Source: Deltaproteobacteria bacterium
GTDB lineage: Bacteria > JAGRBM01 > JAHCIT01
Assembly: GCA_026129095.1 (NCBI GenBank)
Contig: JAHCIT010000008.1
Location: forward strand, 7,021-71,020
Direction: 5' to 3'
DNA length: 64,000 nt
This document shows, one piece after another, positions 7,069-64,000 of the stretch (position 1 is its first letter; each line of letters starts with the position of its first letter). A model generated the notes under the pieces. That model was not told the DNA's origin, did not search any database, and saw only the letters and a list, made by a program, of their open reading frames with translations. Both the position numbers and the translations under genes were made by a program.

Positions 7069-7070
7069 GA

Positions 7071-12174: not shown

Positions 12175-12187
12175 GAAAACCTGCCTG

Positions 12188-16257: not shown

Positions 16258-16331
16258 GGCTCTTCAGGGTTTCTGGACCACTGGCTCCCCAGCCACCGGT
16301 CCCCCCCAAAGGCCCTGGGCCACCCCTGCCT

Positions 16332-42312: not shown

Positions 42313-42324
42313 CTGGTCTTGGTT

Positions 42325-42633: not shown

Positions 42634-42756
42634 CTGCCGCCATATCGGCCCAATGGCCGGTACATGTCAAGCGTGACTCCCCTCTTGTCACCCGGTCCCC
42701 GACCGGATAGGGAAGCGCCGCCCGGCGCGTGCCGTGTTCATTCCGAAGGGAACCCC

Positions 42757-44031
42757 ATGCAGGTAGATATCTCCAGTCCCTCCAGTGTCGAGCGAAAAGT
42801 CGTGATCCGCGTGCCCGCCGAACGGCTTGCCGAGGAGCGGCAGAAGGTCATTACGGACCTGAGCAAGTATGCCCAGATCAAGGGGTTCCGGAAAGGAAAG
42901 GCCCCGGTCGCCGTCATCGAGCGGTTGTACGGCTCCGCCATACTGGATGAGGTCCGCCAGCGGATCCTGCGCGACACGGTCGAAAAGGCCTTCGACGAGA
43001 ACAAGCTCCAGCCGATCTCCCAGCCGGTCGTGGATGCCAAGGAGCCGGAACTGGGCCGCGACTACGAGTTCAGCATCCAGTTCGAGGTCAAGCCGGAGTT
43101 CGAGGTCAAGAACTACACCGGAATCGAAATCACCCAGAAGGCAGAGGCCGTCACCGACGATGACGTGGCCAAGACGCTGGAGAACCTGCGCCAGCAGCAC
43201 GCGATACTGGTCCCCAACGAGGCCGACCAGACGCTGGGCACCGGCCTGTTTTTCGTCGGTTCGTACACCGGCACCATCGGCGAGAAAGAGGTTTCCTCGG
43301 GCGGCAAGGATGTGGAGATCGAAATCGGCGCCTCCGGGCAGCTTCCGGGCCTGTCGGACAAGCTCGAAGGGATGAAGACCGGTGAAACCCGGCTGGTCGA
43401 GCTCACCGTCCCCGCGGACTGGGGCTCTCCCGACATCCAGGGCAAGACCTACAAGGTTACTTTCACCTGTAACGCCATCAAGCGGCGGGTGCTGCCCACG
43501 CTGGATGACGAGTTCGCCAAGGATCTCGAGATGGAATCGATGGACGCGCTCCGGAAAAAGGTCCGTGAGGACATGGAGGCGGCGGCGGCCAGCCGGGCGC
43601 GCAACGAAGCGGTCAGCAAGCTGCTCGACCGGATCGTCGAGCAGAACCCGGTCGATGTGCCGCCCTCGCTCGTCGAGTCGCAGTCCATGGAATACATTCA
43701 GCGGACCTATGCCCAGTTCCAGATGCAGGGTCTGAAAATGCAGCCGCGCCCGGAAGAACTCGAGAAGATGAAGGAAAGCGTGCGTGAGGACTCCACCAAG
43801 GCCGTCCGGCGCTCGCTGGTGCTGCTGGCCATCGCCGAGAAGGAAAAGCTCGAGGCCACCGACACCGATGTCGAGGCCGAGGTGGCCCGCCGGGCCGAAT
43901 CGGCAGGAGTGCCCGCAGACAAGCTCCGCGCCTATCTGGACAAGGAAGGCGCTCTCAGCCAGATCAGGGGACAACTGATCGAGAAGAAGGTGATCGACTT
44001 TCTGATGGAAAAATCGAAGGTGACGGTCTAG
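42757..44031 (+). CDS. tig: trigger factor (ribosome-associated chaperone/PPIase)
   Basis: Real start ATG 42757-42759 (MQVDISSPSSVERKVVIRVP) with GAAGGG 8 nt upstream; the track ORF 41737..44031 is an upstream read-through of the same frame. Confidence 0.93.
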   Translation: MQVDISSPSSVERKVVIRVPAERLAEERQKVITDLSKYAQIKGFRKGKAPVAVIERLYGSAILDEVRQRILRDTVEKAFDENKLQPISQPVVDAKEPELGRDYEFSIQFEVKPEFEVKNYTGIEITQKAEAVTDDDVAKTLENLRQQHAILVPNEADQTLGTGLFFVGSYTGTIGEKEVSSGGKDVEIEIGASGQLPGLSDKLEGMKTGETRLVELTVPADWGSPDIQGKTYKVTFTCNAIKRRVLPTLDDEFAKDLEMESMDALRKKVREDMEAAAASRARNEAVSKLLDRIVEQNPVDVPPSLVESQSMEYIQRTYAQFQMQGLKMQPRPEELEKMKESVREDSTKAVRRSLVLLAIAEKEKLEATDTDVEAEVARRAESAGVPADKLRAYLDKEGALSQIRGQLIEKKVIDFLMEKSKVTV

Positions 44032-46930: not shown

Positions 46931-47908
46931 TTGGCACTCGATCCGCATCAGTATCCGCTTGAATGGACCGCTCCCGTCCCCCCGGTGGAAGACGCCCGGC
47001 GGTGGTGCCAGCGCATGGCGGCAAGCCACTACGAGAACTTCCCCGTGGCGAGCTGGATACTGGGCGGCCGCAGGCGGCACCATGTGGCTGCCGTATACGC
47101 CTTTGCACGGACCGCCGACGACCTGGCCGACGAGCCGGACTATCCGGAACCCGGTGTGACCCCCGAAAAGCGTCTGGCCAACCTGGACCAGTGGCAATCC
47201 CACCTGACGCTGGCGTTTGAGGGCCGGGCATCCCATCCGGCATTTGTCGCGCTCTCGGCCACGGCCCGGGAACTCGGCCTACCGAAAAACCTGTTTGAAG
47301 ACCTGCTGTCGGCATTCCGCCAGGACGTGATGAAGTCCCGGTATGAAAACCTGGATGAGGTGCGTGACTACGCCCGCCGGTCCGCGAATCCGGTCGGGAG
47401 GCTCGTGCTCCGCATCTGGGGGATCACGGATCCCAGGGCCGACGCCTGTTCGGATGCCATCTGCTCGGCCCTCCAGCTCGTGAACTTCTGGCAGGACGTG
47501 TCGAAGGATTATGTCGAGCGCGACCGCATCTATCTCCCCCGCGACCGGATGGTGCACCATGGGGTATCCGAGACTGAACTCCGTGCGGGACCGGTGACTG
47601 CCGGCTACCGGAACCTGCTGGAGGAAATGAACCAGACCGCCGCACAGCTTTTCGAGGCGGGCCGTCCCCTGCCCTCGATGCTTCCGTTCCCCCTGTCACT
47701 GTGGCTCCGGTGGGTCTGGCTTGGCGGCACGGCCATCGGAAGGCGGCTCCGGCTGGCCGGGTACGATGTCTTTTCCCGGCGCCCTGTCCTCACGGGGCCC
47801 GACATGGTGAAGCTGCTGCTGCGGGGCCTGTTCCCCCTGGGCGGACGCCCTGCCCTGCCGTCCGGCCGGATGCTGGCAGCGGCCACGGTATCCAAGGAGG
47901 CTGCCTGA
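46931..47908 (+). CDS. hpnC: squalene/phytoene-synthase-family enzyme, HpnC-like (hydroxysqualene synthase)
   Basis: 325 aa; HYENFPVAS block; Asp-rich motifs ADDLADE and QDVSKD; TTG start per track, with internal GTG/ATG alternatives; stop overlaps the hpnD ATG (TGATG). Confidence 0.72.
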   Translation: MALDPHQYPLEWTAPVPPVEDARRWCQRMAASHYENFPVASWILGGRRRHHVAAVYAFARTADDLADEPDYPEPGVTPEKRLANLDQWQSHLTLAFEGRASHPAFVALSATARELGLPKNLFEDLLSAFRQDVMKSRYENLDEVRDYARRSANPVGRLVLRIWGITDPRADACSDAICSALQLVNFWQDVSKDYVERDRIYLPRDRMVHHGVSETELRAGPVTAGYRNLLEEMNQTAAQLFEAGRPLPSMLPFPLSLWLRWVWLGGTAIGRRLRLAGYDVFSRRPVLTGPDMVKLLLRGLFPLGGRPALPSGRMLAAATVSKEAA

Positions 47909-48753
47909 TGGCCGATACAGCCGCTACCGACCAGTTCCGGAACTCCAACTTCGCGCTAGCCTTCTTCTTCCTGCCGAAGGCCGAACGTGAGGCGATGCAG
48001 ATTGTCTATGCCTACTGCCGGATACTGGATGATATTGTCGATGAACCCGGTGATCCCGCGGTCAAGCGCAAGGAACTCCGCAAGTGGGAGGAGGAACTGG
48101 ACCAGATATACAACGGCCGTCCCCTCGACCCACTGGGCCGCCGCCTCCAGGAAATCGTCCGCCAGTTCCACCTGAGCCGCGAACCGTTCCAGCGGATCAT
48201 CGACGGATGTGCAATGGACCTCGACCACGCCCGTTATGAAACCTTCGACGATCTCTATGTCTACTGCACCAAGGTGGCGAGCGCGGTCGGCCAGTGCTGC
48301 ATCGAGATATTCGGCTACGAAAACATGAAAACGCAGGACTATGCCGAGCATCTGGGAGTCGCGCTCCAGCTTACCAACATCCTCCGGGACGTGGGCGAGG
48401 ATGCCCGGCGGGGGCGGATCTACCTTCCGCGGCAGGAAATGGACCGGTTCGGAGTCACCGAGACGGACATTCTCGCCGGCCGGCAAACGGACAATACGCG
48501 AAAGCTTCTCGAACAGTTCGGCAAGAGGGCGAAAGGCTACTACGAACTCGCCGAGAGCGAAAAGCATGAGCTGGAACCGAAACGGCTCATGGCCGCCGAA
48601 ATCATGGGTGCCATTTACCGGAAGGTGCTCGACCGGGTGGAAGCCTCCGGGTACGACGTATTCGGCGCTCCCCTGAAACTGACCACACTGGAGAAGGCTT
48701 CGGCGCTCGCAGGAGTCATGGCGCGCCATTACCTGCGCCGCGAGGCAGCCTGA
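47908..48753 (+). CDS. hpnD: squalene/phytoene-synthase-family enzyme, HpnD-like (presqualene diphosphate synthase)
   Basis: Trimmed to ATG 47908-47910 (MADTAATDQFRNSNFALAFFFLP...); Asp-rich motifs LDDIVDE and RDVGEDARRGRIYLP. Confidence 0.75.
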   Translation: MADTAATDQFRNSNFALAFFFLPKAEREAMQIVYAYCRILDDIVDEPGDPAVKRKELRKWEEELDQIYNGRPLDPLGRRLQEIVRQFHLSREPFQRIIDGCAMDLDHARYETFDDLYVYCTKVASAVGQCCIEIFGYENMKTQDYAEHLGVALQLTNILRDVGEDARRGRIYLPRQEMDRFGVTETDILAGRQTDNTRKLLEQFGKRAKGYYELAESEKHELEPKRLMAAEIMGAIYRKVLDRVEASGYDVFGAPLKLTTLEKASALAGVMARHYLRREAA

Positions 48754-48755
48754 TC

Positions 48756-50105
48756 GTGCCGCCGCCGGACGTCCTCATCGTGGGCGGCGGCATCGCTGGC
48801 CTTGCGGCCGCCACGGAACTGGCCGACAGCGGCCTTCGGCCCCTCATTCTGGAAATGCGCGCCGACGGCGGCGGACGGGCGTCGTCCTTCAATGATCCGG
48901 CCAGCGGAATCCGGGTAGACAACGGGCAGCACCTTCTCATGGGCTGCTATGCCGAAACGCTCCGGTTTCTGGAACGTATCGGAGCACGCGGCGACCTGAT
49001 CTTCCAGGAACAGCTCGAAGTGAACTATCTCGGCGACAGCAAGGGGCCCGGACGGATGCGGGCGCTCAACCTGCCCGCCCCGTTGCATCTGCTGGGGGGG
49101 CTGCTCACTTTCAACCTGCTGTCATGGCGCGAGCGGTTCCAGACCCTGCGCGTGGGACTGGCCATCCAGTTCGGCGGCTCCGGCGGAGCCGACGAAAGCG
49201 TACGCGACTGGCTGACACGGCTCGGTCAGAGCAGACGGGTGCAAACGGTCCTGTGGGATCCGATCACCATTGCCACCCTGAACGAGGAACCCGAACGCGC
49301 CTCCGCGGAACTGCTCCGCGAAGTGCTTCGCATCGCCTTCTTCAGCTCCAGGGAGGGCTCCCGTCTGGTCATACCCGCCACGCACCTCAGCGATCTGTAC
49401 GTGGGCCGGGCGAAGTCATGGCTCGCGGCTCGCGGGTCCGAATTCCGCCCGCAGGCCCACGTGTCCGAAATCCTGTTCGATAGCGGCAAAGTGGCAGGGG
49501 TCCGGCTCCGGAGCGGGGAAACCATCCTGTGCGGCCGGGTGATATCGGCCGTGCCGGCACATCCCCTGCTCAGTCTGCTGCCCCAGGGAATACGGAGCGA
49601 GGCGCCCTTCAACAGGCTGGAGGAGCTTTCCGGCTCGCCGATCGTCAGCGTCAACCTGTTTTACGACCGCCCGGTGACGGACGACCCGTTCGTCGCGCTC
49701 CTCGACAGCCCGATCCACTGGGTATTCAACCGCCCCAGGATACTGGGAGAGAAAAGCCCGCAGCTTCACCACTACGCACTGATTGTGAGCGGCGCCCGGA
49801 CCCTGCTCGACGTGCCGAACGACAGGATTTGCGCCGATGCGGCCCGCGAGATGGTCCGGGTCTTCCCTCTGGCCCGCGAGGCGAAACTGGTCCGGTCCGT
49901 TGCGGTCAAGGACCGGGAGGCGACATTCGCCCAGTTCCCCGGCGTCAACGGCATACGGCCGGGGCCGGTGACACGGCATGAGGGTTTTTATCTGGCCGGA
50001 GACTGGACCGGGACACGGCTTCCGGCGACCATCGAGAGCGCCGCCCTGAGCGGGCATCAGGCCGCCCGGGCCCTACTGGATAAAGGCCAACCTGTCAGGG
50101 GCTGA
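48756..50105 (+). CDS. hpnE: FAD-dependent amine-oxidase-family protein, HpnE-like (hydroxysqualene dehydroxylase)
   Basis: 449 aa; GTG start 48756-48758; dinucleotide-binding VLIVGGGIAGLAAA; follows the two synthase-family genes. Confidence 0.78.
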   Translation: MPPPDVLIVGGGIAGLAAATELADSGLRPLILEMRADGGGRASSFNDPASGIRVDNGQHLLMGCYAETLRFLERIGARGDLIFQEQLEVNYLGDSKGPGRMRALNLPAPLHLLGGLLTFNLLSWRERFQTLRVGLAIQFGGSGGADESVRDWLTRLGQSRRVQTVLWDPITIATLNEEPERASAELLREVLRIAFFSSREGSRLVIPATHLSDLYVGRAKSWLAARGSEFRPQAHVSEILFDSGKVAGVRLRSGETILCGRVISAVPAHPLLSLLPQGIRSEAPFNRLEELSGSPIVSVNLFYDRPVTDDPFVALLDSPIHWVFNRPRILGEKSPQLHHYALIVSGARTLLDVPNDRICADAAREMVRVFPLAREAKLVRSVAVKDREATFAQFPGVNGIRPGPVTRHEGFYLAGDWTGTRLPATIESAALSGHQAARALLDKGQPVRG

Positions 50106-52645: not shown

Positions 52646-52878
52646 CCGTAACTCCCTTTCAGTGTTGACGCGCATCCGGCTACAGGGGGCCGCAGACCGG
52701 ATGACGGCGGGCAGCCTATGCCTGCCGCGTGGCGGAATGATGGAAACCGTGTGACGGGGACGTGACAAGCACCGGAACGGTCACCATAAGGGCCTTAGCG
52801 GCCTCTGGAGGCACCGTGTTACGGATCATGGACGCCGGAGGGGGTTTCCCCCTAGAATCGTTCCAAGATGGCCGACAG

Positions 52879-54435
52879 ATGAAGATTCTTCTCGTCAACC
52901 CGCCGACGACCAACGTCCATGTGCCGGAAAACACGCCGCTGGGGCTTCTGTACCTGGCACAGGCGGTCCGTGATATCGCTGATCCGTGGGTGATCGACTT
53001 CGACGCCATGAAGCTTCCCGCTGGCGGGATGCTGCGCCGCCTGACGGAAGAACGGCCCGATCTTCTCGGCATCACCTGCACGACATACAGCTTCAAGGCC
53101 CTTGTCGAGATCACCCGGTTTGTCCGCGAGCAGTTGCCTGAAACCCGGATCGTGATCGGCGGCCCGCACGTGACTGCCTATCCGGAGCAGGCGATGAAAG
53201 AGGCCGCTCCCGACTGGATCATTACCCGGGAAGGCGAACTGGCATTCCGTGATCTGGTACTGGGTCTGAAAGGCGAACAGTCCTGTCCAGCGCCCGGCAG
53301 CATCATCGAGGGCACTCCGCTGGAGCCGATCGAGCGTTTCGGCTTTCCTGCCCGCGATCTCCTGGAACCCGGACTGTATGGCTACCTGGGGAACCATCCC
53401 CGGCACGTGGCCCCCGAGGCGGTCATGCTCTGGGGACGGGGCTGCCCGCACAAGTGTACCTTCTGCTCGGATGTCGTGTTCATGGACCGGAAGACCCGGT
53501 TCCGGCCCGCGGACGCCGTGCTGGACGAAATCGGCGAGCTCAAGCGTCTCGGGTTCAAGGAGATATTCGTCTACGACGACGAACTGGCGGGAATGAACCC
53601 GGTGGAAAACGCCTGGATCGCCGAGATATGCAGGGGGATCATCGCCCGCGGCTATAACGACCTTGTATTCAAGTGCCAGGGCCGGTGCTCGAAGTTTGCC
53701 ACCCAGGAGATGCTCGACCTGATGGCCGAGGCCGGATTCCGGACCATCATGTGGGGCGTCGAGAGCGGATCGCCCGCTGTTCTCCGCGCAATCCGCAAGG
53801 GCACGACGCGAGAAGCGATCGAGGAAACGATGGAACGATGCCGCAAGGCCGGTATCGAGCGGTGGATGTTCCTCATCATCGGATTCCCGCAGGAAACCGC
53901 CAGCGATCTCCAGATGACCTGCGACCTGGTAGAGAAGGTGAAGCCGGAATACGTGCAGGTGACCTTCGCCACGCCCTATCCGTCGGCGCTCAGCGAGCAG
54001 GCCCTCAGGGAAAACCGCGTCCAGAACTGGGATATCGACACCTGGAATACGCATCGCCCGGTGATCCGCTGCGACCACCTGACCGACGACGAGCTGATCG
54101 CCTGGCGGGAAAAGATACTGGCCGCCTGCGACCGCCACCACCGCGTCGAGCCGCAACCGGGCATGCATGTCGCCGAGGAAGCCATCGGAAACTCCTGCTA
54201 TTCGGGCATGGTCGTGGGGCTGGATGCCGCAAAGGGCCTGCCTTCAGGAGACCGGATTCCGCCCCGTGTGCCCCAGCACCGGATCCCGACGTGGGATGAC
54301 CACTGGGAGGCGACCAAACTGGCCTGGAAACGGCAGGGCCTCGGTGGCATCTACCAGAAGGCGGTCCGGGCCTTCCAGCGCCGGTTCACGGACCGTTCCG
54401 TCCCGCCCGAAAGCCTGTTCATGGGACAGGGCTAG
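52879..54435 (+). CDS. B12-binding-domain radical SAM protein
   Basis: Trimmed to ATG 52879-52881 (MKILLVNPP...); N-terminal cobalamin-binding-like Rossmann segment; radical-SAM cysteine triad CPHKCTFC. Confidence 0.85.
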   Translation: MKILLVNPPTTNVHVPENTPLGLLYLAQAVRDIADPWVIDFDAMKLPAGGMLRRLTEERPDLLGITCTTYSFKALVEITRFVREQLPETRIVIGGPHVTAYPEQAMKEAAPDWIITREGELAFRDLVLGLKGEQSCPAPGSIIEGTPLEPIERFGFPARDLLEPGLYGYLGNHPRHVAPEAVMLWGRGCPHKCTFCSDVVFMDRKTRFRPADAVLDEIGELKRLGFKEIFVYDDELAGMNPVENAWIAEICRGIIARGYNDLVFKCQGRCSKFATQEMLDLMAEAGFRTIMWGVESGSPAVLRAIRKGTTREAIEETMERCRKAGIERWMFLIIGFPQETASDLQMTCDLVEKVKPEYVQVTFATPYPSALSEQALRENRVQNWDIDTWNTHRPVIRCDHLTDDELIAWREKILAACDRHHRVEPQPGMHVAEEAIGNSCYSGMVVGLDAAKGLPSGDRIPPRVPQHRIPTWDDHWEATKLAWKRQGLGGIYQKAVRAFQRRFTDRSVPPESLFMGQG

Positions 54436-55397: not shown

Positions 55398-57566
55398 TCA
55401 GTTCGTCCCCTGCCAGTCGATCTGCTTGACCGGCTTCATTCCCTTGAACTGCTCGTAAACCCGGTTGTTCACGAACAGCTCGAACAGGTCGCGGTCCAGA
55501 TGGTTGGCATCCACTTCCGCCTTGATGATCTCCAGCGCCTTCGGGATAGGCATGGGCGGCTTGTAGGGACGGTCACGGGCCGTCAGGGCCTCAAATATGT
55601 CGAGAAGCGCCAGAATCTTGGCCTGAGTGAGAAGCTGCTCGCTCTTCAGGCCATGCGGATAGCCCGTTCCGTCGATCTTCTCGTGATGGGAACCAGCGAT
55701 GTGCGGGACGTTCTTGAGGGACTTCGGCCAGGGAATCTTCCGCAGGATTTCCCAGGTGTAGGCAATGTGGCTCTCGATGATCTCGCGTTCCTTTCCGGTC
55801 AGGTTCCCCCGCCGGACGACCAGGTTCTCGACCTCGAATTCGCCGAGCAGCGGCTTTACCGTGCCATCGGTGTCGGTCATCGTCCGCTTCGAGATTTCCT
55901 GGACCTTGGCCACTTCCTCGTCCGAAACGAACCCCCGCTTGTTGATGTCCATCAGCAGCAGGATTTCCGACTGGATGCGGTCGATGTCTTCCTTCACCTT
56001 TCCCGCCGGCTCGTCGCCGGGCCTGAGATCCCCCGCCCGGTAAGCGGCTTCCATCCGCTGGAACTTGAGCATTTCGAACCGGCGGCGGACGGCTTCCATC
56101 TGCTCGGGCGCAAGCTTGTGGGCCTTGGTGAGCACCGCCTCACGGACTGCGATCTTGCCCACGTCATGCAGATAGCTGGCGTATTTGAGTTCCCGGAGTT
56201 CCTCGTCGCTGAACTTCACCCCCGCAAACGGCCCCGATGTCTGCTCGTTGATGATCCGGGCCATCGTCTGGGCGTACTGGACCAGACGGTAGCTGTGACC
56301 GCCAGTGGCCGTATCCCGGTATTCCAGTGTGGCGGCGAACGACTGGGCCAGCGCCTCGAACAGTTTTTCCACGTCGTCGATCAGTTTCACCTTCTCGATC
56401 GAAACGGCCGCCTGCGAGGCCAGCGACAGGAGCAGCTGGCTGTCGGCATCGTCGAATATCGTGACGTGCCGGGGGGTATCCTCCGGCTTGTCGAGAATGG
56501 TTGCGAAGTTCTTCTTCTTGTTGATGAGCTGGATGACGCCCGTGATCTCGCCCCGGTGATTCCGCATCGGTACCACCAGCATTGACACGGAACGGTAACC
56601 CGACTTCTTGTCGAAACCGGAGTTGAACGAGAACGGCGAACCTTCCGGCAGGCTATAGACGTCGGCGATGTTCAGTATCTCGCCCTTGGCAGCCACATAG
56701 CCCGAAATGGACGCCGTGCTCACCGGCATGGCGAACGAGACAAACGGGATGCTGAGCGAATCGTTCTGCGAGCAGGTGAACCGGAGCTGCTTCGGGAACT
56801 CCTTTTCACGTCGGTACGGCAAGGGCGGGTTCTTCTGGTTTTCCTCGGGCTCACCCTCCTCGATGAGATAGAGCGAGCCCGCGTCGGCACTTGTCGCCCG
56901 CCGGCACTCAAACAGGATCATGTCCAGAAGCCGCTGCAGGTTGCTTTCGGTCGAAAGGGCCGTCCCGATCCGGTAGAGCTTGTCGATCTGGTCGGAGGCG
57001 CGGCCAAGCCGGGCCTCCATGTCGCCCAGACGCAGGCTTGAGCCCACCAGTTCCAGCGAGTTCAGCACCGACAGCGCCAGCGCATCGGGATCAATCGGCT
57101 TGGAAACGAGTTCCGTCACCCCGAATGCCTTGACCAGTTTCTGGTTATGGGCACGCCGTCTGGGGGAATACATTGCCACCACCCGGTGCGGAGAACTGCG
57201 GCTGGCGAGAACCTTGGCAAGCCCCCTGGTGTTGGCAGGCAGATGATCGAGATCCATGACCACGGCCGCCGGGAAATCGTGCTGAAGCGTTTCCTCCAGA
57301 CTCTCGACGTCTTCGACCCACAGTTTCGGCGTGCCGGCCGGTATCTCCTTGCTCGCCCTGGAGACGGGGACGGAGCGTTCAACCGCCAGGAAGATGACGG
57401 ACGGGCGCTGGTCTTTCGCCATTGACGCGGTGCTCATCGGTTTGCCGATCCCCTTATATAGGCGCTTCAGAATGCCGCCGGTTCGCCCTGCTGCTGTGCT
57501 ATCCGGTGACAACGCTATCACACCGTTCCGAAACGGCAAAAGCAGGGGAATACCCCGTTGCCCCAC
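55398..57566 (-). CDS. REC-like/GAF/HD-GYP domain protein (putative c-di-GMP phosphodiesterase)
   Basis: 722 aa; C-terminal HD-GYP blocks YLHDVGK and HHEKIDGTGYPHGL; central GAF-like region; N-terminal receiver-like fold with atypical acidic pocket; start probably the internal ATG near 57437. Confidence 0.88.
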   Translation of the reverse strand: MGQRGIPLLLPFRNGVIALSPDSTAAGRTGGILKRLYKGIGKPMSTASMAKDQRPSVIFLAVERSVPVSRASKEIPAGTPKLWVEDVESLEETLQHDFPAAVVMDLDHLPANTRGLAKVLASRSSPHRVVAMYSPRRRAHNQKLVKAFGVTELVSKPIDPDALALSVLNSLELVGSSLRLGDMEARLGRASDQIDKLYRIGTALSTESNLQRLLDMILFECRRATSADAGSLYLIEEGEPEENQKNPPLPYRREKEFPKQLRFTCSQNDSLSIPFVSFAMPVSTASISGYVAAKGEILNIADVYSLPEGSPFSFNSGFDKKSGYRSVSMLVVPMRNHRGEITGVIQLINKKKNFATILDKPEDTPRHVTIFDDADSQLLLSLASQAAVSIEKVKLIDDVEKLFEALAQSFAATLEYRDTATGGHSYRLVQYAQTMARIINEQTSGPFAGVKFSDEELRELKYASYLHDVGKIAVREAVLTKAHKLAPEQMEAVRRRFEMLKFQRMEAAYRAGDLRPGDEPAGKVKEDIDRIQSEILLLMDINKRGFVSDEEVAKVQEISKRTMTDTDGTVKPLLGEFEVENLVVRRGNLTGKEREIIESHIAYTWEILRKIPWPKSLKNVPHIAGSHHEKIDGTGYPHGLKSEQLLTQAKILALLDIFEALTARDRPYKPPMPIPKALEIIKAEVDANHLDRDLFELFVNNRVYEQFKGMKPVKQIDWQGTN

Positions 57567-57593
57567 GGACTCCGGGGGAGTACCTTAAGAAGC

Positions 57594-59399
57594 GTGACCA
57601 CTCCGAACCGGATCACTGTGCCCGCCCTGACCCAGATGCTGCTGAAGGGAGGGCTGATCGAGGCCGAGGCCGCGCGTGAAATCACATCCAGCGAGCGGAC
57701 GCTCGCGGATGCCATTTCCAAGGAACGCAGCGCCATGTATTCGCGTCTGGGCCTCACGGGCGAGGCAGCCCGGCCCTCTCCGGTGGATATCGTCGCGCAC
57801 CTGAACCTCCAGATTCCCGCCCAACCCGGCAAATACCTGAACGAGGACCGGATAGCCCAGTTTCTCGCCGAAACGTACAAAATCCCTTACAAGAAAATCA
57901 TTCCGCTGGAACTGGACCCCAACTTCGTCACGACCCAGTTACCCAAGGCCTATGCCCAGCGGCATATGGTCATACCCCTGTCGAATGACAACGGCGTGAC
58001 CGTCGTGGCCATTCCTGACCCGGCGGCATTGCCGGTACTGCAGGAACTGGAGCAGCGGCTTTCCCGCAAATTCAGGCCCGTGATCTCCTCGCGCTCGGAC
58101 ATCCTCAAGGTCATCAGCGAGTTCTGGGGCCTCCGGCAATCACTGGAGAAGGCAAAGCACGAGTTCCAGGGCGAGACGGTGGACCTGGGAAACCTGGAAT
58201 CCCTGTTCGATCTCAAGGCCGGCTCAGAAATCGAGGCCAACGACCGGCAGATCATCCGGATCGTTGACTACCTGTTCGCCTATGCCATCGACCAGCGGGC
58301 AAGCGACATCCACTATGAGCCCAAGCGGGACCGCGCATCCATCCGGCTGCGGATCGACGGCCATCTGCACGAGGTCGTCCAGCTTCCCCGCCCGGTTCTC
58401 AATGCCATCGTCAGCCACATCAAGACCCGCGCCCGGCTGGATATCGCCGAAAAGCGCCGTCCGCAGGACGGACGCACGAAGGTCTCCCATTACGGCCGGG
58501 AGGTGGAGATGCGCGTCTCCATCGTCCCGGTGGCATTTGGCGAAAAACTGGTCATCCGACTTCTGAACGCCAGCGCCTACCTGCAGCCACTGGACAGCCT
58601 CGGATTCTTCCCGCGTGACCTGGTGCAGTTCCGGTCCATGCTCGCTTCGGCGAACGGGCTCGTCCTCGTCACCGGTCCTACCGGCAGTGGAAAGACGACA
58701 ACGCTCTATTCGGGTCTGAAAGAGGTGTCCCGACCTGACCTCTCCATCACGACAATCGAGGACCCTATCGAGATGGTGATCGAGGAGTTCAACCAGATCG
58801 CCGTCAATCCCAAGATCGAGCTCAGCTTCGCCGATGCCCTGCGGGTGGTGCTCCGGCAGGATCCCGACATCATCATGGTGGGCGAGATACGCGACCCCGA
58901 AACCGCACAGGCCGCCATCCAGGCGGCACTCACCGGCCATCTGGTGCTGGCAACGTTGCACACGAACGACGCTCCCACGGCCGTGACGCGGCTTCTGGAC
59001 CTTGGCGTGGAGGACTACCTCATCGCCTCCACGGTGATCGGCGTGGTCGCCCAGCGTCTGCTCCGCTCGGTCTGCAACGATTGTGCCGAGGCGGCCTCGC
59101 TCACACCCGAGCAGATGGAGGAGCTGAAACTGCCCGCCAAGGGCATGCCGCCGCTGCCGGTCAAGAAGGCCATCGGCTGCCCGGCCTGCCGCTATTCCGG
59201 CTATCAGGGGCGGGCCGGCATCTATGAAGTGATGCCGATGACGGACAAGATCCGCAAGCTGGTGAGGACCAATCCCGACGTGGTGGAAATCCGCAAATCC
59301 TCCATTGATGACGGCATGATCACGCTCCGCGAAGCAGCCGTCAAGAAACTCGCCATGGGCGTCACCACGTTCGAGGAAGTGCTGCGTGCCACCGTCTGA
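57594..59399 (+). CDS. GspE/PilB-family secretion/pilus assembly ATPase
   Basis: Walker A GPTGSGKTTT, Asp/His boxes, C-terminal tetracysteine CNDC...CPAC; start placed at GTG 57594 (track start 57558; ATG 57636 is an alternative). Confidence 0.9.
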   Translation: MTTPNRITVPALTQMLLKGGLIEAEAAREITSSERTLADAISKERSAMYSRLGLTGEAARPSPVDIVAHLNLQIPAQPGKYLNEDRIAQFLAETYKIPYKKIIPLELDPNFVTTQLPKAYAQRHMVIPLSNDNGVTVVAIPDPAALPVLQELEQRLSRKFRPVISSRSDILKVISEFWGLRQSLEKAKHEFQGETVDLGNLESLFDLKAGSEIEANDRQIIRIVDYLFAYAIDQRASDIHYEPKRDRASIRLRIDGHLHEVVQLPRPVLNAIVSHIKTRARLDIAEKRRPQDGRTKVSHYGREVEMRVSIVPVAFGEKLVIRLLNASAYLQPLDSLGFFPRDLVQFRSMLASANGLVLVTGPTGSGKTTTLYSGLKEVSRPDLSITTIEDPIEMVIEEFNQIAVNPKIELSFADALRVVLRQDPDIIMVGEIRDPETAQAAIQAALTGHLVLATLHTNDAPTAVTRLLDLGVEDYLIASTVIGVVAQRLLRSVCNDCAEAASLTPEQMEELKLPAKGMPPLPVKKAIGCPACRYSGYQGRAGIYEVMPMTDKIRKLVRTNPDVVEIRKSSIDDGMITLREAAVKKLAMGVTTFEEVLRATV

Positions 59400-60426
59400 G
59401 GTCCATCCCCCAAAATCGGTAGCAGTGGTGGGGGCCGGTTCATGGGGGACCGCGCTCGCCCACCTGCTGGCGTCCAAGGGCTACGAAGTCCGTATCTGGG
59501 GCAGGGACGCCGACGTGGTGGAAAGCCTCAACCGCCGCCACACGACCAAATACCTCCCCGGCGTCAACATACACCCCAGCCTCCGGGCCACGGGGGAGCT
59601 CACTGAAGCGGTCCGGGGCGCGTCGATGGTCGTGGGGGCCGTTCCGAGCCAGTTCACTCGGAATGTCTTCGAGCAGGTCCGCGATCACCTGTCACATGAC
59701 GCCATCGTCGTCATCGCTTCCAAGGGCATTGAAACCACGACACTCATGACCATGAGCGAGGTGATGCAGGATGTCCTGCCGTTCGAGCGGCATGGCCGCC
59801 TGTGCTTCATCTCCGGGCCGAGCTTCGCCCTCGAAGTAGCCAGGGGTTTTCCCACCGTCGTCACGGTGGCCGGCGAGAACCCGCGTATCGCCCGGACGGT
59901 CCAGCACTGGTTCCATGCGCCCTCTTTCCGGGTGTACACGAGCTATGACGTGGTCGGGGTGGAACTGGGCGGCGCACTCAAGAACGTCATCGCCATCGCA
60001 GCCGGGGCGCTGGAAGGCATTGGGGCGGGAAACAACATCCAGGCGGCCCTCATCACCCGCGGCATCGCGGAAATGACCCGGCTCGGCATCAAGCGGGGGG
60101 CCAATCCCCTCACCTTCGCGGGACTCACGGGCATGGGCGACCTCATCCTCACCTGCACGGGACAGCTCTCGCGCAACCGGAGCGTCGGCCTTCGGCTCGG
60201 CAGGGGCGACAAGATCGACGGCATTCTCAAGGGAATGGACCAGGTGGCCGAAGGCGTCGAAACCTCGCGCTCGGCCTATATGCTCGCCCAGAAGGAAAGC
60301 GTCGAGCTGCCCATCATGGAGCAGGTCTACCGGGTGCTGCATGAGGGCAAGGAGATCCGGCAGGCCATCCAGGACATCATGGCCCGTGAGCTGAAGGCGG
60401 AACTGGACTACCTGACGAGCGGATAA
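59386..60426 (+). CDS. gpsA: NAD(P)H-dependent glycerol-3-phosphate dehydrogenase
   Basis: 346 aa; VAVVGAGSWGTALA Rossmann motif; GTG start overlapping the 3' end of the upstream ATPase gene by 14 nt. Confidence 0.92.
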   Translation: MPPSEVHPPKSVAVVGAGSWGTALAHLLASKGYEVRIWGRDADVVESLNRRHTTKYLPGVNIHPSLRATGELTEAVRGASMVVGAVPSQFTRNVFEQVRDHLSHDAIVVIASKGIETTTLMTMSEVMQDVLPFERHGRLCFISGPSFALEVARGFPTVVTVAGENPRIARTVQHWFHAPSFRVYTSYDVVGVELGGALKNVIAIAAGALEGIGAGNNIQAALITRGIAEMTRLGIKRGANPLTFAGLTGMGDLILTCTGQLSRNRSVGLRLGRGDKIDGILKGMDQVAEGVETSRSAYMLAQKESVELPIMEQVYRVLHEGKEIRQAIQDIMARELKAELDYLTSG

Positions 60427-60429
60427 AAG

Positions 60430-61170
60430 CTAGTTGGCGTCCCGTCCCTGATTCCACCGGGTCCATTCATCGTTAAGCGTCTTCTCGCTGATGGGTGCGA
60501 TTGCGGGCGGCGGCCCGCCCGCGAGCCCCACTGTCACCGACTGGCGCGTCTGGATGAGCAGCTTGGTCCACTCCTCGCGGGAAATGTCACGCGGTCCCGG
60601 CACGTCACGCGGGGCGACGATAATCTGCCCCGGTTTGGGCACGTCAATCGGCCTGAACGGGTTGTAGACCTCGACCGCTCCCTTGAATACGTCGATCTTC
60701 AGGTTGTCGCCCGTGACGGCGTAGTTGAACACCGTTCCGCGCACGGCGGCTCCGGCAAAGGGCGAGTTGATCTTGAAGTCGTCGTTCGCGCCAAGCGCCG
60801 AAATGGACGCCCAGACCTGGCCCTGCTCCACGTCCAGCTGGATATCGCGCTTCTGCTGTTCCTGCTCCAGCAGCTTGACGAGATCGACGATGGTGTTCTC
60901 GTCCAGTCGGACCGTCTTGCCCGATTCGATGGAAACTTCCGCCCGGGACTTGCGCTTGGTCTGCATGGTGTCGCCCGATTCGACGGTGGACTTCTCCGGC
61001 ACGGGAACCCAATCGGTTCCGGCCTTTTTCTTTTCCGTCTCGCCGCGAACATATGTCACCAGCCCCCGCTCGTCGGCGGCATCCGTGCCCGCGGCCAGCT
61101 GGAAGCTGAAAACCACGAAACCGGACAGGACCACGGCGAACGAAACGGCGGCGGATTTGAGCGGACTCAT
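60430..61170 (-). CDS. secreted FecR-domain protein
   Basis: 246 aa; signal peptide MSPLKSAAVSFAVVLSGFVVFSFQLAAG; beta-rich C-terminal region consistent with FecR-type sensor domains. Confidence 0.68.
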   Translation of the reverse strand: MSPLKSAAVSFAVVLSGFVVFSFQLAAGTDAADERGLVTYVRGETEKKKAGTDWVPVPEKSTVESGDTMQTKRKSRAEVSIESGKTVRLDENTIVDLVKLLEQEQQKRDIQLDVEQGQVWASISALGANDDFKINSPFAGAAVRGTVFNYAVTGDNLKIDVFKGAVEVYNPFRPIDVPKPGQIIVAPRDVPGPRDISREEWTKLLIQTRQSVTVGLAGGPPPAIAPISEKTLNDEWTRWNQGRDAN

Positions 61171-61280
61171 CAGAACTGTCTCCTGCTTGCCCGTGCTTCC
61201 CCTTCAGGAAGAAGCCGGCACTTCGGGCCGGACGCTATTAGAACCTGCCGGAACGGGCAATTTCGGTGATTCACGTTACA

Positions 61281-64000
61281 TTATTCCCCGGTGGAGGCAA
61301 TTGGTCCGTAAAGCGCCGTACCGGCCCAGGCGAACGGGTGGCCATACGTCCCGTCCAGATCACGGGCCGCGCCGAGGAAGGCAGCAGCCGGCAACTGCCC
61401 CTTCTGCAGTGCCCCATACCCCTGCCGGTAGATCCGGGCGCCCACTGCGCCCCGCCGCCAGCCAGGCAGCACCCACGGATTCCGTGCGCCCCGCATGAGT
61501 GATGGCGCCCGGAGCGCCAGAACCGTAACCGAATCCGGCGGTACGCCACCGTCCATCACGCTTGCCGAGAGGGATGTGCTCTCGATCACGGAAATCCGGT
61601 CCGGCCCGCAGGTAACACCGGCCGGGGAAACCGGCGAAATCCTGAGCCGGTCGGCGCAGTGGAGCCAGCCCCGCGCAGGCCCCCGCGTTTCGATCACGGT
61701 CCGTTCCTGTCCGAAGAAATCGGCGCCGCCCCGGCTGTCGAGATCCAGCCCGAAGCCAGCCCGGACCCGTGACGGGTTCGCCCCGGCCATGCGACTCCGG
61801 TCCGGACGGAACTCCTGACGGACGGCTACCGGTTCCAGTTCCCACAGTGCCCCCAGCGACGACACGGCGAGCCGGGGAGACCAGACACCTCCATCCTGCC
61901 GGCGGGCCCCCAGCAGTGGGGCCGGAAGCTGCTCCAGCAGCCCGTCAGGCACCAGCATCACGGCAGCGCCCGGTGGAAGGGTATCCAGCAGCGTCCGGAT
62001 TTTCCCGGGCAGGAACTTCTCCCGGAAGGAATCCCATACCGGTTCGTAGCGGCCCTGTGAGCGAACTGTCTCGGCAAGGGTTGGAACGGTTCTGGCCAGC
62101 GATCCGGGTTCGAACGTCAGCTCCGAGGCATCCACCCCGCGGCTGTCCAGCGTCCACCAGAGAATGGCTCCCTCTCCATCGAGATCGACCGGAACCAGCA
62201 CCACCGAACCCGGAGCGACTCCGGGCAGCGAAAAGTCCGGACTGTCGCGGAGAAGCGCCAGCGCCGGGTGCGCCCCCGGCGGCATGGCAACCGGGTATCT
62301 GCGCCGGGCACTCACCGCCTCTGCCACCCGGTCATGCCAGGCAGCACCCGGGACACCATCGGGCAGAAGGACCGGCTCCAGCGCGCGACGGGAAAGCCCC
62401 GTTTCCCACATCCGGTCCCGAAGGAGTTTCCGGCGGCCGCGCTCCCAGAACCGGAGGGCCGCGGGAGGATCGCCGGCCGACAGTTCGCGGGCCGCCCGGC
62501 GGAATATGGCGGCCTTGGCCACGGCGAGCCCCGACCGCGCTTCCGTGGCGGGCGAGGACGGAGGTTCCAGAAGCCATGCCTCGGCGGCTGAAACAGCCGG
62601 GAACGGTGCAGCCGTCCGCGCAATGAGGCCGGGATCGCCCAGTTCCCGGGCGGCGGTGTGCAGGGATTCCATGTCTTCTCCGCCAGCATTTTCCAAGCGG
62701 GATGCGCGAAGCCAGCGAAGTTCAAGTTCGGTCCTGCGGTGGCCGCTGGCGGCAGCGGAGGCGACGGCTTCATCCAGAAATTTCCGACCTTCCGCCATGC
62801 GGCCTGAATCCAGCGCAATCAGCGCCAATTGCCTGAGAGCGCCGGAAAGTCCCGCCGGATTTTCCCGTTGCCGGTCGATCCCCGCCGCTTCAGCGAGGTA
62901 AAGCCGTGCCTCATCGTGCTGGCCGAGCACACGAAGCGATGTCCCGAGTGTGACCAGAATGGCAGCCACCCGGCCGGGATCGGCCTCACGGCGCGCATGA
63001 ACGAGCGCCCCTTGCGAAAAACCGACCGAAATCTCCTCGCGGCCCAGTGACCAGTAGAGAAGTGCCGCGAGGTTAAGCAGGTCGGCGGCGGGGCCATCGC
63101 CCGCAGGGGCCGCCAGCGACGCCGGCCTTTCCTTAAGGAGCGGCGCGATAACTTCTATCGCCGAATCCGGCCGCGCCAGCTGCCTCAGGGCCGTCGCCCG
63201 GTAGAGCCGCGCCTGAAACTCCAGCTCCCCCAGCCCGCGCCGCGCCGCCTCGGTGGCGAGTTCTCCCAGCGCGGTTTCGGCAACCTGATACCGCCCGCGG
63301 GCACTTTCCACGAGCGCCAGTGTGAGCCGGTTGCGGAAAACCGCCTGCTCCAGCGCGGCGGTTTCGTCTCCAGGCTGGGGAGAGCCCTGTGCCTGACGCA
63401 GCAGAGACGATGCAATCCGGATGGCCGCCTCCAGGTCGGCCGCCGCACCGTCGTGGTTTTCCGTCTGTTCGTATTGCACGCGGCCGCGGTTGAACAGAAG
63501 TTCGGCACGGCTCGCTGCATCGCCAGCGGCCTCCGCATGAGCGATGGCCGATGTATACCGCTCCACCGCCGCTTTCCCCTGCCCCGCGAGCGCGAGCCCC
63601 CGCCCCCATTCGGATTCGATCACCAGCAACATCTGCCGGTTCGCCCCCGCCGCCCGAATGGCATCCTCGAACCGCTCGAAGGCATCTTCAAACCGGTTGG
63701 CGCGCAGGTAGTCCTGACCCGCGAAGTACAGGGCCTGAGCCGCCTGCACCGTAGCGCCCGCTTCGGCGTAGATCCGCGCGAGCCGGTCCTCGTATGCCGC
63801 CGCCCGCTCCCACTCGCGCATCTGCTTGAGGGCATACACCGCCGCATTCAGCATCTGGACCAGCGTGCGCGGATCGACACCGATCACGTCCATCGTCGTC
63901 ACGGCCCGCTCGGCGGCCAGCGCCGCCTCCGGCCAGCGTTTTCCGGCTGCCCCGGAAGCCGCCCGGTTGGCAAGATCGTTGATGAGCGTCCGGGCAAAGG
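61281..64000 (-). CDS. TPR-repeat protein with C-terminal CHAT-like (caspase-family) domain, 5' end outside window
   Basis: Track ORF 61281..63902, but the frame stays open to base 64000; TPR-like helical repeats N-terminally; C-terminal block GTYGHPFAWAGTALYGP resembles the CHAT C-terminal signature. Confidence 0.75.
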   Translation of the reverse strand, partial: FARTLINDLANRAASGAAGKRWPEAALAAERAVTTMDVIGVDPRTLVQMLNAAVYALKQMREWERAAAYEDRLARIYAEAGATVQAAQALYFAGQDYLRANRFEDAFERFEDAIRAAGANRQMLLVIESEWGRGLALAGQGKAAVERYTSAIAHAEAAGDAASRAELLFNRGRVQYEQTENHDGAAADLEAAIRIASSLLRQAQGSPQPGDETAALEQAVFRNRLTLALVESARGRYQVAETALGELATEAARRGLGELEFQARLYRATALRQLARPDSAIEVIAPLLKERPASLAAPAGDGPAADLLNLAALLYWSLGREEISVGFSQGALVHARREADPGRVAAILVTLGTSLRVLGQHDEARLYLAEAAGIDRQRENPAGLSGALRQLALIALDSGRMAEGRKFLDEAVASAAASGHRRTELELRWLRASRLENAGGEDMESLHTAARELGDPGLIARTAAPFPAVSAAEAWLLEPPSSPATEARSGLAVAKAAIFRRAARELSAGDPPAALRFWERGRRKLLRDRMWETGLSRRALEPVLLPDGVPGAAWHDRVAEAVSARRRYPVAMPPGAHPALALLRDSPDFSLPGVAPGSVVLVPVDLDGEGAILWWTLDSRGVDASELTFEPGSLARTVPTLAETVRSQGRYEPVWDSFREKFLPGKIRTLLDTLPPGAAVMLVPDGLLEQLPAPLLGARRQDGGVWSPRLAVSSLGALWELEPVAVRQEFRPDRSRMAGANPSRVRAGFGLDLDSRGGADFFGQERTVIETRGPARGWLHCADRLRISPVSPAGVTCGPDRISVIESTSLSASVMDGGVPPDSVTVLALRAPSLMRGARNPWVLPGWRRGAVGARIYRQGYGALQKGQLPAAAFLGAARDLDGTYGHPFAWAGTALYGPIASTGE

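Follow-up and report, generated by a model that had tools for sequence, protein, structure and literature searches.

TfpB is a stand-alone second extension motor of the type IVa pilus in Acinetobacter baylyi (Ellison et al. 2021, PMC8213720; review PMC11656802). Its function was demonstrated in one species only. In MshE, an ATPase with a c-di-GMP-binding N-terminal domain, substitution of G11 and of G40 abolishes c-di-GMP binding (PMC5013675). These systems were compared with a locus in a 64-kb window, which is the whole stretch of deltaproteobacterial DNA that was analysed. Two intact, divergently oriented genes were found, an HD-GYP gene on the minus strand and a stand-alone PilB/GspE-family ATPase gene on the plus strand. 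Both were present at the coordinates and with the features that the initial annotation had described.

The minus-strand ORF spanned 55398-57566, and its likely start was the ATG at 57437, which gave 679 aa. Another possible start at 57422 would give 674 aa. A 679-aa homologue, 82% identical, matched the protein over its full length, and the homologues were 668-679 aa long with 50-99% identity. The plus-strand ORF spanned 57558-59399, with GTG at 57594 as the likely start. The resulting 601-aa ATPase was identical to the database protein P0001 from a 'Deltaproteobacteria bacterium' MAG. In the intergenic region, a possible ribosome-binding site, GGGGGAG, was located at 57573-57579, and alignment showed that the short motif GCTATCACACCG (57514-57525) was kept in five related loci. 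No sigma-70-like promoter and no terminator were found in this region. The stop of the ATPase gene overlapped gpsA by 14 nt, and the two genes are probably co-transcribed. For the giant TPR gene, a single-frame tblastn match covered 61284-63998 against residues 1570-2489 of the partial translation of the homologue at locus L003. The features are listed in the table.

Table. Features of the HD-GYP/ATPase locus, in window positions.
Feature	Position	Strand	Evidence
REC-like / GAF / HD-GYP phosphodiesterase gene, 679 aa	55398..57437	-	ORF, Pfam GAF + HD_5/HD, homologues
HD-GYP catalytic domain, ~aa 355-660	55458..56375	-	phmmer alignments to PmGH 4MCW, V-cGAP3 5Z7C, PA4781 4R8Z
Family-specific insertion in HD-GYP domain, aa 447-539	55821..56099	-	PmGH alignment, homologue consensus
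GAF domain, aa 166-347	56397..56942	-	Pfam PF01590, E=1.4e-11
Receiver-like domain, aa 1-135	57033..57437	-	AF2, Foldseek, family alignments
Divergent intergenic region, 156 bp	57438..57593	.	sequence, alignment
Stand-alone PilB/GspE-superfamily ATPase gene, TfpB-like clade, 601 aa	57594..59399	+	identity to P0001, NCBIfam, tree
MshEN/GSPII-fold N-terminal domain, aa 1-180	57594..58133	+	AF2, Foldseek, Pfam PF05157
Degenerate MshEN motif I PALTQMLLKGGLIEAEAAREITSS	57621..57692	+	9/11 relaxed positions; Leu at MshE Gly11
Degenerate MshEN motif II NLQIPAQPGKYLNEDRIAQFLAET	57804..57875	+	8/11 relaxed positions; Gln at MshE Gly40
N2E + C-terminal ATPase core	58236..59387	+	Pfam T2SSE 416 bits, motif positions
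Walker A	58674-58700	+	
Asp box	58752-58772	+	
Walker B	58860-58895	+	
His box	58932-58967	+	
Tetracysteine	59073-59189	+	
gpsA, NAD(P)H-dependent glycerol-3-phosphate dehydrogenase	59386..60426	+	Pfam NAD_Gly3P_dh_N/C
FecR-domain gene	60430-61170	-	Pfam
Giant TPR protein gene	61281 to past window end (64000)	-	Pfam

The HD-GYP protein carried YLHDVGK (aa 422-428) and HHEKIDGTGYPHGL (aa 584-597). H381, H424, D425, H557, H584, H585 and D613 were the putative ligands, with GYP at 592-594. Of the eight residues that bind metal in the active enzyme PmGH, seven were retained, together with the GYP motif, and the equivalent of PmGH E185 was A377. The HD-GYP assignment and the absence of degeneracy were thus upheld by alignment to active enzymes. 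By these residues, the domain is of the binuclear type and is predicted to be catalytically competent. The best PDB match was the cGAMP-specific V-cGAP3. The predicted substrate is c-di-GMP or 3'3'-cGAMP, between which the sequence does not discriminate. The insertion was flanked by two copies of 'LLKxGKLxxEE' (aa 435-446 and 540-551), 105 residues apart, and both matched one and the same PmGH segment in phmmer. It was also found in the consensus of 99 homologues.

The receiver-like domain was predicted by AF2 (pLDDT 91) as a (beta-alpha)5 fold, and its best Foldseek matches were the HupR, DctD and 3HV2 receivers. Pfam Response_reg gave 13.1 bits (E=0.11), which was below the cut-off of 30.2. 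An atypical acidic pocket had been suspected here, and this was borne out: D62 (the acceptor Asp), S91 and K113 were retained, but there was no acidic pair after strand 1 (A18, V19, then E20). Because the acceptor Asp was kept but the Mg-binding acidic pair was missing, the domain is probably a pseudo-receiver or dimerisation module.

The ATPase carried Walker A GPTGSGKTT (aa 361-369), CNDC (494-497) and CPAC (529-532), and the Walker A, Asp box, Walker B, His box and tetracysteine motifs were all intact. Its assignment to the PilB/GspE superfamily was upheld by the Pfam T2SSE match and these motifs. Among the NCBIfam models, the best score was that of TfpB (620 bits, below the curated cut-off of 850), compared with 531 for GspE and 528 for PilB. 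True TfpB proteins scored 496-531 on the PilB and GspE models, about equal to the ATPase, and canonical A. baumannii PilB reached only 449 on the TfpB model. In tblastn, the TfpB orthologue of A. baumannii matched the ATPase with 440 bits, whereas A. baumannii PilB reached 343. The phmmer scores were 545-600 bits for the nearest nine of 80 genome-scan loci and 458-525 bits for the other 71, mostly proteobacterial, with 431 for one truncated ORF. Against PilB of Geobacter and Myxococcus they were 381-403, and against GspE structures 355-361.

A neighbour-joining tree was built from 381 columns of the core ATPase region; its few outgroups included neither MshE nor any PilB from outside the Proteobacteria. 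The clade of the window ATPase and its relatives (Nitrospirota, Geomonas, Acidobacteriota and other phyla) had bootstrap support of 99/100, and the TfpB clade 100/100. Both together were split from PilB, HofB and GspE in 100/100. On this tree, the ATPase belongs to a clade that is sister to true TfpB, not to TfpB itself. The two shared an N-terminal architecture, in which a helix 'LxxLLxxGxI' was followed by a '(S/H)PxxxIA(H)xNL' helix and 'LxxxxLxxxLA'.

Two canonical assignments were rejected. For PilB (TIGR02538), the score of 528 was below the cut-off of 675.65, the gene was not beside pilC/pilD, and the protein lay outside PilB on the tree. For GspE (TIGR02533), the score of 531 was below the cut-off of 630.25, there were no adjoining gsp genes, and the protein lay outside GspE on the tree.

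The gene stands alone, as the initial annotation had stated, with gpsA next to it. Neither pilus nor type II secretion genes turned up in the 64-kb window when about 40 further ORFs were scanned with Pfam, and tblastn queries with PilC, HofC and GspF gave no match there. These platform queries find one another at E<=1e-35, and loci L001-L090 likewise gave no match to them. At the 80 loci, the ATPase homologues were most often flanked by housekeeping genes. An orphan gene is what this family leads one to expect, since the entire TfpB / TfpB-like family is stand-alone.

It is possible, though unlikely, that the ATPase serves another type IV filament, a type II secretion machine or an undescribed pilus-independent task instead of the type IVa pilus. 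The ATPase reached no equivalog cut-off and was stand-alone in every lineage examined, and linkage of its gene to gpsA was seen in the window and, with the gene order reversed, in a Nitrospirota genome (L008); so tight a connection with gpsA is a hint towards the membrane. However, among the other loci examined, just one showed that linkage. In addition, all assembly-ATPase motifs were kept, including the Zn-binding tetracysteine, and the closest characterised relative works on the type IVa pilus (PMC8213720).

The N-terminal domain was predicted by AF2 (pLDDT 94) as a complete MshEN/GSPII fold, with about 30 extra residues in the N-subdomain between helix 2 and its final helix. Its best Foldseek matches were MshE-N with c-di-GMP (5HTL), PilF GSPII, X. 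citri PilB-N with PilZ, and XpsE-N. One reading is that this domain is a functional MshEN receptor and that the adjoining HD-GYP enzyme lowers local c-di-GMP, which switches the motor. The fold, with its best structural match to MshE-N bound to c-di-GMP, and the remnants of both motifs are consistent with it, as is the divergent pairing. The stretch ALTQMLLKGGLIEAEAA resembled the middle of an MshEN motif and, in the best register, agreed with the published relaxed motif at 9 of its 11 constrained positions. The partial fit reported earlier was real as a resemblance, and the fold was complete, but the essential Gly was replaced in both motifs. Position 3 (G11) was Leu, or Thr in the register of the initial annotation, and G40 was Gln. 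At position 1, where MshE has Arg, motif I has Pro or Ala and motif II has Asn; at position 24, Q32 was replaced by Ser or Glu and Q61 by Thr. The spacer between the 24-residue motifs was 37 residues versus 5. The relaxed motif was matched by 0/120 homologues and 0/80 related loci.

[quoted passage not shown] The Pfam 'MshEN' match (PF05157) covered the alpha/beta subdomain only (aa 95-177), and this model also gave no match to the part of V. cholerae MshE that binds c-di-GMP. The binding region lies outside the match in the ATPase. Since the motif residues were largely missing on alignment, the proposed sensing through MshEN was not sustained, and the receptor reading is distinctly improbable. 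[quoted passage not shown] With degenerate motifs, both essential Gly residues replaced and a 37-residue spacer, direct binding is not expected. A non-canonical ligand site in the enlarged N-subdomain would be compatible with this loss.

The divergent pair was found on at least eight contigs, in a single lineage only, with ATPases 56-100% identical to that of the window. More distant relatives of the HD-GYP gene and of the ATPase gene lacked the pairing, including every other TfpB/TfpB-like locus examined. On the ATPase side, all related loci had the FecR gene and the giant TPR gene in synteny with the pair. In this lineage gpsA was syntenic too, with the same order in L003, L004, L006 and L088, whereas the flank on the other side, beyond the HD-GYP gene, was variable. 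The HD-GYP/ATPase junction was kept down to 56% ATPase identity, also at L003, where that outer flank was rearranged. A view of the two genes as unrelated neighbours leaves this persistence across ATPase divergence unexplained.

Coupling could also occur without nucleotide binding by the ATPase, if the HD-GYP protein or an adaptor contacted the variant MshEN domain and the nucleotide, GAF or receiver state gated motor docking. X. citri PilB-PilZ-FimX and RpfG-GGDEF-PilZ are precedents for such contacts. The PilZ-binding X. citri PilB-N was among the closest structural matches (E ~2e-5), the junction was kept where the outer flank differed, and the conserved intergenic motif suggests common regulation. 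However, the pairing is restricted to one lineage and absent from the more distant loci of both genes, and the genes beyond the ATPase are equally syntenic, so that inherited gene order suffices to account for the pairing; this coupling has a low probability. No PilZ gene was close to the ATPase gene. Because gpsA, FecR and the giant TPR gene are equally syntenic and the pairing is lineage-limited, adjacency alone argues weakly for a circuit. The local c-di-GMP circuit over an orphan ATPase, as first proposed, was unsupported, and the ATPase has lost the sensing residues. Shared regulation of surface behaviour may underlie the adjacency.

We consider it reasonably likely that the locus encodes a competent HD-GYP enzyme and a TfpB-sister accessory type IVa pilus motor whose N-domain is not a c-di-GMP sensor and whose link to the HD-GYP enzyme is putative. 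The HD-GYP product would be a cytoplasmic cyclic-dinucleotide phosphodiesterase, regulated through its GAF sensor domain and receiver-like domain. The ATPase would be a hexameric assembly-type enzyme of the PilB/GspE superfamily. By homology to TfpB, it most likely docks on a type IVa pilus machine, or that of a closely related type IV filament, assumed to be encoded elsewhere in the genome, where it would help to start or drive fibre extension. Its N-domain would act as a docking or partner-binding module rather than a nucleotide sensor.

Compared with PmGH (4MCW), PA4781 (4R8Z) and V-cGAP3 (5Z7C), the H...HD...H...HHE...D ligands and GYP of the HD-GYP protein matched residue for residue. The third-metal Glu of PmGH is missing here, likewise in PA4781 and V-cGAP3. 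The differences were the helical insertion interrupting the catalytic domain and the GAF domain between this and the receiver-like domain. The c-di-GMP-binding domains of V. cholerae MshE (5HTL) and T. thermophilus PilF GSPII-B/C (8PDK) have the same two-subdomain fold (Foldseek E ~1e-6, TM 0.65-0.71 normalised to target for MshE/PilF GSPII) and, like the domain here, are fused to the same ATPase core. XpsE-N (2D27/2D28), PilF GSPII-A (9G1W) and X. citri PilB-N (7LKM/7LKO) are non-binding domains with this fold and deviant motif residues, the last binding PilZ instead of c-di-GMP. They are precedents for an N-domain that serves as a protein-docking module, but none has the ~30-residue enlargement or the 'SPxxxIAxxNL' helix that are characteristic of TfpB-like proteins. 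Canonical PilB and GspE have the superfamily, catalytic motifs and tetracysteine in common with the ATPase. TfpB (NCBIfam NF053534) is similar in length (~585-600 aa) and Walker A position (~residue 345-360), and both lack c-di-GMP motifs and lie away from pilC and pilD. In contrast to true TfpB, the ATPase was ~40-46% identical to it in a separate non-proteobacterial clade, had a longer insert after helix 2, and was paired with an HD-GYP gene and gpsA, with its putative function assigned by homology.

The 601-aa ATPase was most likely an accessory pilus motor of TfpB lineage that is blind to c-di-GMP, and its neighbour, the 679-aa HD-GYP protein, a competent phosphodiesterase. As a TfpB-lineage motor, the ATPase would serve a machine encoded elsewhere. 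The divergent genes, the motifs that the initial annotation had quoted for them, and gpsA as the next gene were all present in the sequence. The assignment of the ATPase to the PilB/GspE family was confirmed by Pfam, where T2SSE (PF00437) reached 416 bits (cut-off 24.9), and by the Walker A, Asp box, Walker B, His box, and tetracysteine motifs, all of which were located. Among the NCBIfam models, TfpB (NF053534) was the best with 620 bits against an equivalog cut-off of 850. The GspE model (TIGR02533) gave 531 bits (cut-off 630.25) and the PilB model (TIGR02538) gave 528 bits (cut-off 675.65), and the ATPase passed no NCBIfam equivalog cut-off. TfpB is a stand-alone, phylogenetically distinct ATPase that serves the type IVa pilus of A. 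baylyi as its second extension motor; its gene is not transcribed together with pilC (PMC8213720; review PMC11656802).

Comparison was performed with the best 80 TfpB and TfpB-like loci listed, taken from species-representative genomes as longest-ORF translations, in which Walker A was typically found near residue 345-390. Six of these loci (Pseudomonas, Phytopseudomonas, Rhodanobacter, Variovorax, a Burkholderiales MAG, and Haliangium) scored 869-974 bits on the TfpB model, and a stand-alone A. baumannii protein scored 1065 bits. Relatives in Nitrospirota, Geomonas, Thermoanaerobaculia, Thermodesulfobacteriota, and Myxococcota gave 614-685 bits, and the window protein behaved in the same way. 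On the PilB and GspE models true TfpB gave 496-531 bits, the same as the window protein, and canonical A. baumannii PilB reached 449 bits on the TfpB model. Phmmer searches with the ATPase gave 458-525 bits to 71 of the 80 listed loci, mostly proteobacterial, 381-403 bits to Geobacter and Myxococcus PilB, and 355-361 bits to GspE. Annotated records of E. coli and of a plasmid collection supplied the reference PilB, TfpB, GspE, and platform proteins. A neighbor-joining tree with 100 bootstraps was built on 381 columns of the ATPase core, without the N-domain. With the few outgroups used, the window protein and its non-proteobacterial relatives formed a clade in 99/100 replicates and TfpB in 100/100, the two were jointly split from PilB, HofB, and GspE in 100/100, and the window clade was sister to the TfpB clade and not nested within it. 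The N-terminal architecture, including a '(S/H)PxxxIA(H)xNL' helix, was common to the ATPase and TfpB. Judged by the sub-cut-off TfpB score, the tree, and the common architecture, the protein was classed as a TfpB-like ATPase of a sister clade and not as a TfpB equivalog. What looked like an orphan secretion ATPase would thus be placed among the accessory pilus motors of TfpB lineage, and stand-alone TfpB-like ATPases would extend beyond Gammaproteobacteria. The well-supported sister clade included Nitrospirota, Geobacterales, Acidobacteriota, Myxococcota, and this 'Deltaproteobacteria' MAG lineage, and two-motor pilus extension may therefore be widespread. Pseudomonas aeruginosa also carries a stand-alone ATPase, PA5210. 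Our literature search found no functional study of PA5210 and nothing specific on orphan GspE.

Features of the window and their positions
Feature	Position	Strand	Remark
dcw cluster	1178-18323	-	complete-looking; ftsZ, ftsA, ftsQ, ddl, murD, mraY, murF, murE, ftsI
Trigger factor, longest ORF	41737-44031		start 340 codons upstream of the Trigger_N domain
Squalene/phytoene synthase gene, then flavin amine-oxidase gene	47701-50105		
B12-binding radical-SAM enzyme	52762-54435		flanked by phosphate-selective porin and TlpA-like thioredoxin
HD-GYP gene	ORF 55398-57566	-	likely start ATG 57437 (679 aa), from homologue lengths
Insertion in HD-GYP catalytic domain	55821-56099		aa 447-539
Intergenic motif	57514-57525		GCTATCACACCG
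ATPase gene	ORF 57558-59399	+	likely start GTG 57594 (601 aa), from identity to database protein
gpsA	59386-60426	+	overlaps ATPase stop by 14 nt
FecR-domain gene and giant TPR/Tricorn_N-like gene	60430-64000		after gpsA; also in the related loci L003, L004, L006, and L088

For the HD-GYP protein, an 82%-identical homologue of 679 aa matched end to end, and a 99%-identical homologue began five codons later. The ATPase was identical to database entry P0001 from a 'Deltaproteobacteria bacterium' MAG (208-kb contig), and GGGGGAG was found 14 nt before its GTG start. The distance between the two starts was 156 bp. About 40 further ORFs of the window were scanned with Pfam, and no pilus or secretion genes were found in it. 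When A. baumannii PilC and the E. coli proteins HofC and GspF served as tblastn queries, no match was obtained in the 64-kb window; as a control, these queries found one another at E<=1e-35. This was consistent with the initial annotation, in which no pilus or type II secretion genes were noticed nearby. The ATPase was encoded apart from pilC and pilD in the window and, with no pil or gsp neighbours there, was not in a pil or gsp operon. Homologues of PilC, HofC, or GspF were likewise absent by tblastn from the comparison loci L001-L090, that is, within 8-10 kb of any of them. The commonest neighbours across the 80 loci listed were housekeeping genes, each lineage-specific, and the Geomonas and Nitrospirota orthologues had unrelated genes as neighbours. 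Stand-alone status is a trait of the family. In L008, a locus of Candidatus Magnetomicrobium (Nitrospirota), gpsA (8200-9177) adjoined the TfpB-like ATPase (9956-11776) in reverse order, with gpsA upstream. This was the one recurrence of the adjacency among about 85 other loci (L001, L002, L007-L087, and the HD-GYP loci L089-L090), and it may be due to chance.

The other ORFs of the window included the dcw cell-division and cell-wall cluster, tRNA-Pro, trigger factor, ExbB, squalene-synthesis genes, a phosphate porin, and a B12 radical-SAM enzyme. The 5' stretch of the trigger factor ORF probably reflected an ORF called too long in GC-rich DNA, and no real extension. The pairing of squalene/phytoene synthase and flavin amine-oxidase genes presumably resembles the HpnCDE squalene route. 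The pair was flanked by thioredoxin- and glutaredoxin-like proteins on the HD-GYP side and by gpsA, a FecR-domain protein, and a giant TPR protein on the ATPase side. The giant TPR protein had 2,592-2,704 aa in relatives and extended past the window end here. An interruption of its gene at 63902 was considered and rejected, as the frame was open up to the window end.

Next to the family assignment, the N-domain of the ATPase bears on c-di-GMP binding. The Pfam 'MshEN' match spanned aa 95-177 only, and the first 111 residues gave no MshEN match even at E<=10. This match lay outside the c-di-GMP-binding region. The c-di-GMP-binding stretch of V. cholerae MshE (residues 4-69) itself did not match PF05157, and the Pfam label is therefore uninformative on nucleotide binding. 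A PilB-type ATPase that carries a 'MshEN' label is not thereby a c-di-GMP receptor, as the model spans the non-binding subdomain only. Since the catalytic core of a full-length model would mask the N-domain, aa 1-180 were modelled alone. The AlphaFold2 model (pLDDT 94) showed a helical-bundle N-subdomain and an alpha/beta C-subdomain. The best Foldseek matches were MshE-N with c-di-GMP (5HTL) and the PilF GSPII domains, with alignments over the whole domain (~170 columns), and the next were X. citri PilB-N/PilZ complexes and XpsE-N. The modelled N-domain thus has the MshEN/GSPII fold.

The c-di-GMP-binding MshEN consists of two tandem 24-residue motifs, RLGxx(L/V/I)(L/V/I)xxG(L/V/I)(L/V/I)xxxxLxxxLxxQ, with a 5-residue spacer (Wang et al. 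2016, PMC5013675). Substitution of G11 or G40 in MshE abolishes c-di-GMP binding, and binding by XpsE is lost through changes of the same sort (PMC5013675). In the ATPase, motif I read PALTQMLLKGGLIEAEAAREITSS, and its Gly was replaced by Leu (by Thr in the register of the initial annotation). In motif II, NLQIPAQPGKYLNEDRIAQFLAET, Gln took the place of the Gly, and Asn that of the MshE Arg. A spacer of 37 residues separated the motifs, compared to 5 in MshEN. The best motif windows of the ATPase scored 9/11 and 8/11 relaxed positions, and both MshE motifs scored 11/11 as a positive control. Neither the strict nor the published relaxed MshEN pattern matched the ATPase or any of its 120 best homologues (0/120), and the relaxed pattern matched 0/80 of the related genomic loci listed. 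Even PilF GSPII-A, a non-binder of c-di-GMP (PMC12002112), had fewer motif deviations than the ATPase N-domain. The MshEN motif residues were in substance missing on alignment, with both motif glycines replaced and a spacer of 37, and c-di-GMP sensing by the ATPase through MshEN, as initially suggested, was not supported. These motifs indicated that the ATPase is most likely c-di-GMP-blind. Separately, near-perfect tandem MshEN motifs, LLGEMLVQAGKLSPRDLERALQAQ + QEMGS + LIGQVLVQLGLVSEMDLMQTLARQ, were observed in a protein annotated as GspE on a Comamonas odontotermitis plasmid record (L096:235-1974). With its 5-residue spacer this protein looks MshE-like. It failed the published relaxed pattern at position 1 only, which shows the strictness of that position.

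The order HD-GYP gene, ATPase gene, gpsA, FecR gene, and giant TPR gene recurred in the related loci L003, L004/L005, L006, and L088, where the ATPase was 80% (L003), 59% (L004/L005), and 56% (L006) identical to the window protein. Three database ATPase/HD-GYP pairs (P0002/P0123, P0003/P0124, and P0006/P0129) were likewise placed on shared contigs, as the lengths of their contigs agreed. In L003, the junction between the two genes was retained despite a different flank beyond the HD-GYP gene. Homologues of the two genes at greater distance were unpaired, and no HD-GYP homologue was found at any other TfpB or TfpB-like locus examined. In the divergent intergenic region, a motif with the consensus of about CTATC(T)A(Y)CAC was the only well-conserved stretch in the five related loci (window, L003, L004, L006, and L088). 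This motif may act as an operator or as part of a promoter. A promoter/terminator scan of this intergenic region found nothing. The conserved pairing and the intergenic motif were compatible with shared regulation. The local c-di-GMP circuit put forward in the initial annotation was not demonstrated: the pairing was confined to one lineage, and the whole ATPase-side block (gpsA, FecR, and giant TPR genes) was equally syntenic. We considered it improbable that the TfpB-like motor gave up direct c-di-GMP sensing for a dedicated partner, with its enlarged MshEN-fold domain contacted by the neighbouring REC-like/GAF/HD-GYP enzyme or binding another ligand (pGpG or 3'3'-cGAMP). The phosphodiesterase would then act as a local 'trigger enzyme' gating the accessory pilus motor. 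If true, second-messenger control over type IV filament assembly would gain a new mode, and the TfpB-type motors, which are poorly understood, a first regulatory handle. The lineage-specific HD-GYP pairing is a testable lead on how TfpB-like motors may be regulated. The pairing and the TfpB-type motors beyond Proteobacteria are the parts worth follow-up.

Pfam identified GAF and HD_5/HD domains in the HD-GYP protein. At its N-terminus, Response_reg gave 13.1 bits (E=0.11), below the gathering score of 30.2, and a precomputed PF00072 match was present in just 1 of 120 homologues. A spurious receiver call was considered, as Pfam misses the domain, and was ruled out by the structure model and the fold search. 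The AlphaFold2 model, built on 23 homologues, had a pLDDT of 91 and (beta-alpha)5 order, and the best Foldseek matches were the receivers of HupR, DctD, and a P. fluorescens HD-domain protein (TM up to 0.73). The REC-GAF-HD-GYP label was thus correct as architecture. In the model, D62 ended strand 3, S91 followed strand 4, and K113-P114 followed strand 5. The phospho-acceptor Asp was retained as D62; Asp was the majority residue at this position in the family and was not invariant. The atypical acidic pocket noticed initially was also seen here: the Mg2+-binding acidic pair after strand 1 was absent, with A18-V19 and then E20 at this site, where the family consensus was W-G. Canonical phosphorylation of this receiver-like domain is doubtful.

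The catalytic domain was compared with active enzymes using phmmer alignments to PmGH (4MCW), V-cGAP3 (5Z7C), and PA4781 (4R8Z). H381, H424, D425, H557, H584, H585, and D613 corresponded to H189, H221, D222, H250, H276, H277, and D305 of PmGH, and HHExxDGxGYP was intact as HHEKIDGTGYP (aa 584-594). A degenerate HD-GYP domain was ruled out by this ligand alignment, and the initial HD-GYP call was right. The conserved ligands suggested that the protein is most likely a competent phosphodiesterase. The best PDB match was the cGAMP-specific V-cGAP3, and the substrate, c-di-GMP or cGAMP, was not assignable from sequence. The catalytic domain was split by a helical insertion, around which an 'LLKxGKLxxEE' segment was duplicated; the copies were 105 residues apart, and both aligned to one PmGH stretch. 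The consensus of 99 homologues (640-690 aa) also contained the insertion. This insertion set the protein apart from PmGH, PA4781, and V-cGAP3, which lack an insertion of this type. The third-metal ligand E185 of PmGH corresponded to Ala377, which would therefore make the site of the binuclear type, and PA4781 and V-cGAP3 are likewise without the third-metal Glu of PmGH.
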